A stretch of DNA of 64,000 bases from the NCBI RefSeq assembly GCF_044324875.1, contig NZ_CP172185.1; one strand, 5' to 3'. Made by a program: the position numbers and the translations under genes. The notes below the pieces were generated by a model. The model was given only the letters and a program-made list of their open reading frames with translations. It was not told the origin of the DNA and made no database searches. This DNA comes from Escherichia coli (GTDB taxonomy: Bacteria; Pseudomonadota; Gammaproteobacteria; Enterobacterales; Enterobacteriaceae). Shown in pieces: positions 63,718 to 64,000 of the stretch (its first letter is position 1; each line of letters starts with the position of its first letter).

Positions 63718-63926
63718 GTTAGATGTTAGTGGCTGTTATAGGACGGCCACTATCGTTTTAGGTTCTGAGTTTAATGGCGGTTAAGTATTAGAATGATTAC
63801 ATTAATAACTAGCGTAAAAATTAGGCTAAATGTTTGATGGCGATTTTTCATCCTGTCACAGTTGATTAGCATAAGGCTTTAGAGTATCGTTATTAAACTA
63901 ATAATTTATAAGTAGAAGTATTAACA

Positions 63927-64000
63927 ATGAAAGTTCAATTGTACAAATTCACGGAAGATAAAAATAAAACCCTTACCTTCAGATGGACGAAAAAACACTT
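63927..64000 (+). other. possible 5' end of an ORF running off the window edge, in AT-rich DNA
   Basis: ATG at 63927 followed by open frame MKVQLYKFTEDKNKTLTFRWTKKH to the window end; preceded by about 200 bp of very AT-rich non-coding sequence. Confidence 0.2.

Follow-up and report, generated by a model that had tools for sequence, protein, structure and literature searches.

A 1.3-kb strain-variable islet downstream of patD in Escherichia coli carries a single gene for a predicted XAT-type O-acetyltransferase

What kind of DNA follows patD in this Escherichia coli genome, and does the reading frame that opens there belong to a real gene? The stretch that we analysed, called the window here, comprises 64,000 nucleotides of contig NZ_CP172185.1 (assembly GCF_044324875.1). 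An earlier note had described a switch to very AT-rich DNA after the patD stop codon, with an ATG-initiated frame running off the end of the window, and had suggested that this may be the edge of an acquired segment. Both observations hold. Positions 63718-64000 have a GC content of 0.318, compared with 0.492 for the window as a whole; a GC content that low is found in just 0.6% of its 283-bp subwindows. In a 200-bp profile the GC content is 0.51-0.58 across ydcS-patD but falls to 0.34 and on to 0.295 past patD, the stop codon of which (TAA) occupies 63715-63717. The frame starts at ATG 63927-63929 on the plus strand, continues for 24 codons up to the window end and translates to MKVQLYKFTEDKNKTLTFRWTKKH, the same sequence as in the earlier note; an in-frame stop lies 5 codons 5' of this ATG.

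Comparison with K-12, which the earlier note had proposed as a check, showed that the DNA 3' of patD is not the K-12 neighbor. In K-12 MG1655 patD and yncL are separated by 96 bp, and alignment against K-12 defines a 1324-bp segment with one gene, an islet, between the two genes. Strain E2865, like many other complete genomes, is 100% identical to the window over the 283 bp, and the frame does not terminate early in these genomes but extends to 269 codons. In E2865 it forms an 810-bp coding sequence (269 amino acids, WP_000867987.1, annotated as "CatB-related O-acetyltransferase"; E2865 locus L001, 8210-9019), which is followed by a tail of approximately 295 bp; past this tail come the usual K-12 neighbors yncL, ortT and ydcY. 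Because the window holds only 24 codons, we infer the intactness of the copy in the source strain from these identical genomes. Taken as a whole, the explanation that we consider very likely is that the window ends in the left part of a 1324-bp single-gene islet, which encodes an XAT-type acetyltransferase with a sugar as the favored acceptor and which arrived as cargo long ago. It is an ordinary accessory islet, and its product is an uncharacterized member of a well-known enzyme class that is already annotated in RefSeq. The features at the window edge are as follows.

62293..63717, plus strand: patD, encoding gamma-aminobutyraldehyde dehydrogenase; this backbone gene borders the islet on its left side (open reading frame; annotated as patD in all matching genomes).
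63568..63721, no strand: interval of a recombination breakpoint, C4-like to its left and E2865-like to its right (from difference counts).
63708..63718, plus strand: left copy of an 11-bp imperfect direct repeat, TAAACATTAAG, overlapping the patD stop codon (from alignment).
63719..64000, plus strand: first 282 bp of the 1324-bp islet, the remainder of which lies past the window end (boundaries from alignment).
63727..63759, plus strand: stem-loop (63727-63752) followed by TCGTTTT (terminator scan; 11-pair stem).
63842..63926, plus strand: probable upstream leader of the acetyltransferase gene (blastn homology reaches positions 8125-8129 of the E2865 locus, corresponding to 63842-63846 of the window).
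63927..64000, plus strand: first 24 codons (plus 2 nucleotides) of the 269-codon gene for a predicted hexapeptide-repeat O-acetyltransferase of the WP_000867987.1 family (from translation).

The islet reads, from left to right, as a hairpin, an AT-rich leader of approximately 170 bp, the 269-codon gene and a non-coding tail of approximately 300 bp. The RNA hairpin at 63727-63759 has a folding energy of −20.3 kcal/mol (z = −4.36), and none of 200 shuffled sequences was as stable; in strains with the islet it probably serves as an intrinsic terminator for patD. The stretch 63842-63926 is the sole non-coding part that can be aligned at the nucleotide level to the copies in Citrobacter and Raoultella, and it probably serves the gene as a leader of its own. 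A weak sigma-70-like match is present at 63878-63905 (TTTAGA-16-AATAAT, 9/12). Since the promoter scan returned 5 sites against 7.3 expected from shuffled sequences, with none above chance, no promoter can be claimed; the Shine-Dalgarno match before ATG 63927 is also weak. The tail (295 to 300 bp) contains only short overlapping open reading frames, none of them credible, is not conserved outside E. coli and shows a neutral-like divergence of 5.4%.

The annotated islet contains the single coding sequence and neither an integrase nor a transposase, hence no mobility machinery of its own. A tRNA scan of the islet returned no tRNA, there is no tRNA attachment site, and a search of the islet and its flanks against Rfam at a permissive threshold gave no match. 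We rejected a transposon origin because the islet lacks the terminal inverted repeats of insertion sequences and transposons; the only inverted pairs are weak, internal and AT-rich. The one feature of this kind is the 11-bp imperfect direct repeat, whose right copy, TAAATATTAAG, lies 1324 bp downstream of the left copy, outside the window. K-12 has a single copy. The chance that random 11-mers of the islet region match at 10 or more of 11 positions is 4e−5.

How common is this arrangement? Of 5426 complete E. coli genomes, 1151, or approximately one-fifth, contain the 283-bp segment; 959 of these carriers match at 99% or more, and 188 have a variant of approximately 91% identity with a 13-bp insertion. 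The empty, K-12-type patD-yncL junction was found in 4241 genomes, and approximately 34 have neither the filled nor the empty junction but something else at this position. An odd composition combined with presence or absence at a fixed site identifies the segment as a horizontally acquired islet. Its gene occurs in strains of many serotypes, and the carriers include O104:H4 and many Shiga-toxin-producing (STEC) lineages; the corresponding protein cluster at 90% identity comprises 3523 sequences, which come from E. coli and Shigella flexneri. The site directly after patD is thus strain variable, and patD-yncL should not be taken as K-12-like in comparative or typing work. In strain cM2a (L003, 8149-9110), IS1A replaces most of the acetyltransferase gene and leaves remnants of approximately 148 bp of the islet on the left and 200 bp on the right, so in some lineages the islet is also undergoing decay. 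As a separate observation on this neighborhood, ydcR, which lies 5' of the ydcSTUV-patD operon, carries an annotated frameshift in E2865 (L001, 1002-2407) and is intact in C4, Ecol_316, cM2a and K-12.

The islet was found on no true plasmid in PLSDB. The single match there, to the islet tail, was NZ_CP141089.1, a 4.94-Mb E. coli sequence that is filed as a plasmid and is evidently a chromosome. A tblastn search of 50,697 phage records returned partial matches of 35 to 44% identity, mostly to Vat-like or unannotated proteins, and no close full-length homolog, and hence gave no evidence for the E. coli islet as phage cargo; in PHROGs we found only families to which no function is assigned there. 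A literature search with the RefSeq accessions found nothing, and the lone E. coli paper that uses the product name was set aside, as it concerns a different open reading frame in the ST131 capsule locus.

To which class of enzymes does the gene product belong? Pfam recognizes only the hexapeptide repeat (PF00132, Hexapep; E = 4.4e−13, 48.8 bits against a cut-off of 27). The best sequence matches in the PDB are Vat(D), VatA, CatB and ApmA (E = 1e−30 to 1e−19). An AlphaFold2 model built on a 43-sequence family alignment has a mean pLDDT of 88.8 and the short, regularly spaced strands of a left-handed parallel beta-helix, the fold of the hexapeptide-repeat superfamily, and the top Foldseek hits of this model are Vat(D), CatB and VatA (TM score per target 0.55 to 0.63, 26 to 34% identity), all of them beta-helix acetyltransferases. 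His112 of the query aligns to the catalytic His82 of Vat(D), as counted from the printed alignment, and corresponds to the loop catalytic histidine of the XAT class (His79 in PaXAT). The residues His112, Pro113, D157-V158-W159, R205, F206 and W219-W220 are invariant in the 43 family members. The C-terminal RF...(I/L)xWW signature of XAT enzymes is also present and aligns to the IKWWN motif of Vat(D).

The matches to Vat and CatB in sequence and fold, together with the invariant His112, lead us to assign the protein to the acetyl-CoA-dependent XAT-type acetyltransferases with a left-handed beta-helix. We are highly confident that it is a hexapeptide-repeat O-acetyltransferase of this type, its activity being a prediction. 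The enzyme would be cytoplasmic and would use acetyl-CoA for O-acetylation. Like Vat(D) and CatB, it presumably forms a trimer, in which His112 would be the general base that deprotonates the hydroxyl group of the acceptor. The dN/dS ratio of 0.12 to 0.13 between the two E. coli alleles, and of 0.05 to 0.08 against Citrobacter, indicates a real and functional gene under strong purifying selection.

Two simpler accounts of the locus have to be weighed against an inserted gene. The AT-rich stretch could be ordinary intergenic DNA and its ATG frame a chance open reading frame or the remnant of a decayed pseudogene, considering that intergenic DNA in E. coli is often AT-rich, that the window shows only 24 codons and that the Shine-Dalgarno match is poor. 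This is highly improbable, as the frame spans 269 codons in identical genomes, has thousands of homologs in the databases, evolves at a dN/dS of 0.05 to 0.13 and encodes a protein with a confident beta-helix model, and as K-12 has no such DNA at this position. For the population the idea is refuted; for the source strain it could apply only if a frameshift or an insertion sequence interrupted the remainder of the gene. Alternatively, the islet could be ancestral at the locus and K-12-like strains could have lost 1.3 kb by deletion between the 11-bp repeats. The islet is indeed bracketed by TAAACATTAAG and TAAATATTAAG, and the exactly one copy in K-12 is the expected product of a repeat-mediated deletion; moreover, the islet alleles have diverged as much as their flanks, as expected for an old resident. 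We nevertheless consider an ancestral islet unlikely because the base composition of the gene is foreign, its locus differs in all of the other genera examined, and it is absent from the species-representative genomes of the other Escherichia species, all of which argues that it was inserted here at some point, and because a simple deletion does not predict the divergent patch right of the repeat that is described below. The junctions themselves do not decide the polarity of the indel, and later deletions in some lineages may coexist with an old insertion.

Several lines of evidence support an insertion, and with it the suggestion in the earlier note of an acquired segment that starts a real gene. 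The gene has a GC content of 0.336 and a GC3 of 0.29 in E. coli, compared with 0.49 to 0.54 in its flanks, and it is AT-rich in every host (0.33 to 0.40, with flanks of 0.45 to 0.54). In Citrobacter, Cedecea, Rahnella, Apirhabdus and Salmonella it resides at unrelated loci. The Citrobacter copy lies between a GNAT gene and a set of nucleoside phosphorylase, MFS and Tsx genes, and the copies in Cedecea and Rahnella lie just 3' of chemoreceptor genes. Among GTDB species-representative genomes, the gene was found in no other species of Escherichia. The AT-richness in all hosts, the different locus in each genus and the absence from other Escherichia species suggest that the gene is lone mobile cargo that was inserted between patD and yncL. 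A 100% match in a metagenome-assembled genome labelled "Collinsella" (L013, JAIJJM010000727.1, 1576 bp) was discounted. This contig is 99.9% identical to the patD-islet-yncL region of E. coli, flanks included, and the flanking patD and yncL sequences mark it as E. coli DNA, almost certainly wrongly binned.

Some details of the copies in other genera deserve mention. In Cedecea (L010, 4154-5845) and Rahnella (L046, 4032-5819) the homolog lies 155 to 180 bp 3' of a gene for a methyl-accepting chemotaxis protein, and the two chemoreceptors differ in the type of their sensor domain (4HB and dCache). The adjacency could be a coincidence or reflect a preferred kind of insertion site. The Salmonella enterica copy (L057, 8001-8810) is 80% identical and lies 3' of proB-proA, in an islet that also carries a PagK-like gene and a gene for an LRR/NEL effector of the SspH/SlrP type; this accessory region differs from that of E. 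coli.

Our comparison of alleles adds a nuance to the acquired-segment reading, namely that the acquisition is old and not recent. Between strains E2865 and C4 the coding sequence of the islet differs by 2.7% (dS 0.094) and its non-coding parts by 5 to 6%; in the same pair patD differs by 4.1% and yncL-mnaT by 2.6%. The divergence of the islet alleles is thus comparable to that of the core genes on either side, which points to an old insertion. The window itself combines the two haplotypes. The 5.6 kb from 58000 to 63567 show 4 differences from C4 and 217 from E2865 (the divergence from E2865 is given as 3.6%), and 63568-64000 is identical to E2865, with 30 differences from C4 that include a 13-bp indel at 63825. 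This pattern identifies the patD/islet junction as a recombination junction, placed at the last stretch of shared homology. The C4/E2865 combination of the window was found in none of the 5426 complete genomes, among which the best full-length match to 63400-64000 was 98.8% identical.

The right junction is also more complex than a clean insertion. A 25-bp patch next to the right repeat, the GATAATGTTGTAAACCTGG patch (L001, 9326-9350), differs at 7 of 25 positions between K-12 (L004) and the filled haplotypes; it is identical in both filled haplotypes and completely linked to the presence of the islet, and beyond it C4 equals K-12. Such a patch is not what one would expect if the segment had simply been inserted with duplication of 11 bp, or simply lost by deletion between the repeats. 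Homologous recombination may have brought in the islet haplotype from a diverged relative in which the orthologous site was already occupied by the islet. We propose that the gene reached the E. coli/Shigella lineage long ago, as a single-gene cargo, in an event that left the 11-bp direct repeat, and that the islet then moved between lineages by homologous recombination via its flanks, the patD/islet junction of the window being one such breakpoint.

What does the enzyme acetylate? The RefSeq names would make the gene a resistance determinant for an acetyltransferase that acts either on chloramphenicol (type B) or on streptogramin A (Vat type). Among solved structures its best matches by sequence and fold are Vat(D), VatA and CatB, the catalytic histidine and the C-terminal WW motif are conserved, and some database entries are named "antibiotic acetyltransferase." Vat(D) and Vat(A) (PDB 1KHR and 4HUR) have the same fold as the query, share with it the GNDVWIG and IKWWN motifs and approximately 34% identity over some 170 to 190 residues, and have His82 in the place of His112. 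CatB and PaXAT (PDB 1XAT, 6PUA and 8J40), from the first of which the RefSeq product name derives, have the left-handed beta-helix trimer fold with a catalytic histidine in a loop and are 26 to 32% identical. ApmA, an aminocyclitol acetyltransferase of 274 amino acids (PDB 7JM0), resembles the query in its left-handed beta-helix and in an N-terminal extension before an XAT-like core; however, it is only 21 to 31% identical, the N-terminal parts have no sequence alignment, and the full-length rmsd is approximately 10 Å.

The curated resistance families give a different picture. The protein scores far below the cut-offs of the equivalog models for Vat (NF000311, 125.3 bits against 300) and CatB (NF000490, 106.3 against 350) and of the model for ApmA (NF000084, 83 against 550). 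It likewise stays below that for phosphonate-metabolism hexapeptide transferases (TIGR03308, 130.9 against 201.65), and its neighbors are patD and yncL and not phn genes. Extra segments of approximately 33 N-terminal and 22 C-terminal residues, conserved within its own family, are missing from Vat and CatB. The gene is neither integron- nor plasmid-borne but chromosomal, and it was never seen on a true plasmid in PLSDB. E. coli, a Gram-negative bacterium, is intrinsically insensitive to streptogramins and is no target of these drugs. Finally, the closest characterized homolog is a sugar acetyltransferase. We therefore consider a resistance function unlikely. The name "CatB-related" or "antibiotic acetyltransferase," carried by thousands of entries, rests on sub-threshold similarity; it may point to the wrong substrate, and counting the gene as a resistance determinant is probably wrong.

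That closest experimentally characterized homolog is Orf11 of Campylobacter jejuni, a demonstrated sialate 9-O-acetyltransferase (PMC8319020, PMC3513307, PMC2174954). The enzyme, also called SOAT, is attributed to Houliston et al. 2006 as cited in PMC8319020 and PMC2174954, and GD3-FCHASE served as the substrate in an assay of its activity (PMC3513307). The C. jejuni protein that we compared (P0127, 276 amino acids against 269, with 1560 member sequences) occupies the orf11 position in the class A/B lipo-oligosaccharide locus, after cst-neuB-neuC-neuA. Its identity to the E. coli protein is 40% across residues 66 to 252 (E = 6e−46), including the C-terminal extension past the WW motif that the two have in common, and the E. 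coli protein is predicted to be, like Orf11, a cytoplasmic hexapeptide acetyltransferase that uses acetyl-CoA. Aligned to the E. coli protein, a full-length family member from Campylobacter lari (P0112) reaches 164 bits, compared with 107 bits for Vat(D); the P0112 gene closes a cst-neuB-neuC-neuA cluster.

More distant relatives also occur near genes for glycan modification or in phage-like DNA. A homolog in Providencia rettgeri, 55% identical, is divergently paired with a gene of the GT52 (sialyltransferase) family in a prophage, and a Brochothrix homolog heads a gtfA-gtfB adhesin-glycosylation cluster; these contexts are two more independent pointers to sugars. The Dickeya homolog adjoins phage terminase and primase genes. 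E. coli K1 NeuO (PDB 3JQY) offers a known parallel, a hexapeptide acetyltransferase encoded by a lone accessory ("moron") gene of a prophage that modifies a surface polysaccharide, and the Providencia and Dickeya homologs resemble it in residing in phage-like DNA. However, NeuO matches the query only in the generic hexapeptide stretch 150-203 (44 bits), and the E. coli islet, unlike the prophage setting of NeuO, has no phage genes.

Other observations temper the comparison with Orf11. The identity to Orf11 (40%) is only modestly above that to Vat(D) (34%), and the N-terminal 65 residues, which have no significant similarity to Orf11, could shape the acceptor site. Orf11 ends a sialylation operon, whereas the E. 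coli gene stands alone; the linkage to cst, neuB, neuC and neuA that is seen in C. jejuni and C. lari does not exist at the E. coli islet, and most islet-bearing E. coli have no known sialylated acceptor. The gene has no glycosyltransferase or sugar-synthesis partner beside it in E. coli, Citrobacter, Cedecea, Rahnella, Apirhabdus or Salmonella, and together with the presence in many serotypes this weakens the case for a role dedicated to one surface antigen.

With Orf11 as the closest homolog, and distant members in glycan-modification loci and prophages, a sugar is at least as likely an acceptor as an antibiotic, which these contexts suggest rather than prove. From the homologs we infer as the leading candidate a sugar hydroxyl group, either of a surface glycan or of its precursor, at a confidence somewhat short of probable. 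An acceptor of some other kind is less likely but possible, and a small xenobiotic or antibiotic of the kind that Vat or CatB modifies is rather unlikely. A more specific idea, which we advance as speculative, is that the "CatB-related" protein is an Orf11-like O-acetyltransferase that decorates a surface sugar in approximately one-fifth of E. coli and does not modify drugs; the candidates would be the LPS core, the O-unit, ECA, capsule or a scavenged nonulosonic acid. If so, the modification would change antigenicity or the recognition of receptors by phages or colicins. Such selection would maintain the presence/absence polymorphism, with recombination in the flanks spreading the islet, and a lone surface-modifying enzyme would have been added to E. 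coli lineages that include important pathogens.

The window contains further stretches of low GC content, at 1577-2193, 10860-11612, 20978-21586, 33218-34926 and 50569-51108. These five have GC contents of 0.35 to 0.39 over 0.5 to 1.7 kb and may mark more accessory segments.
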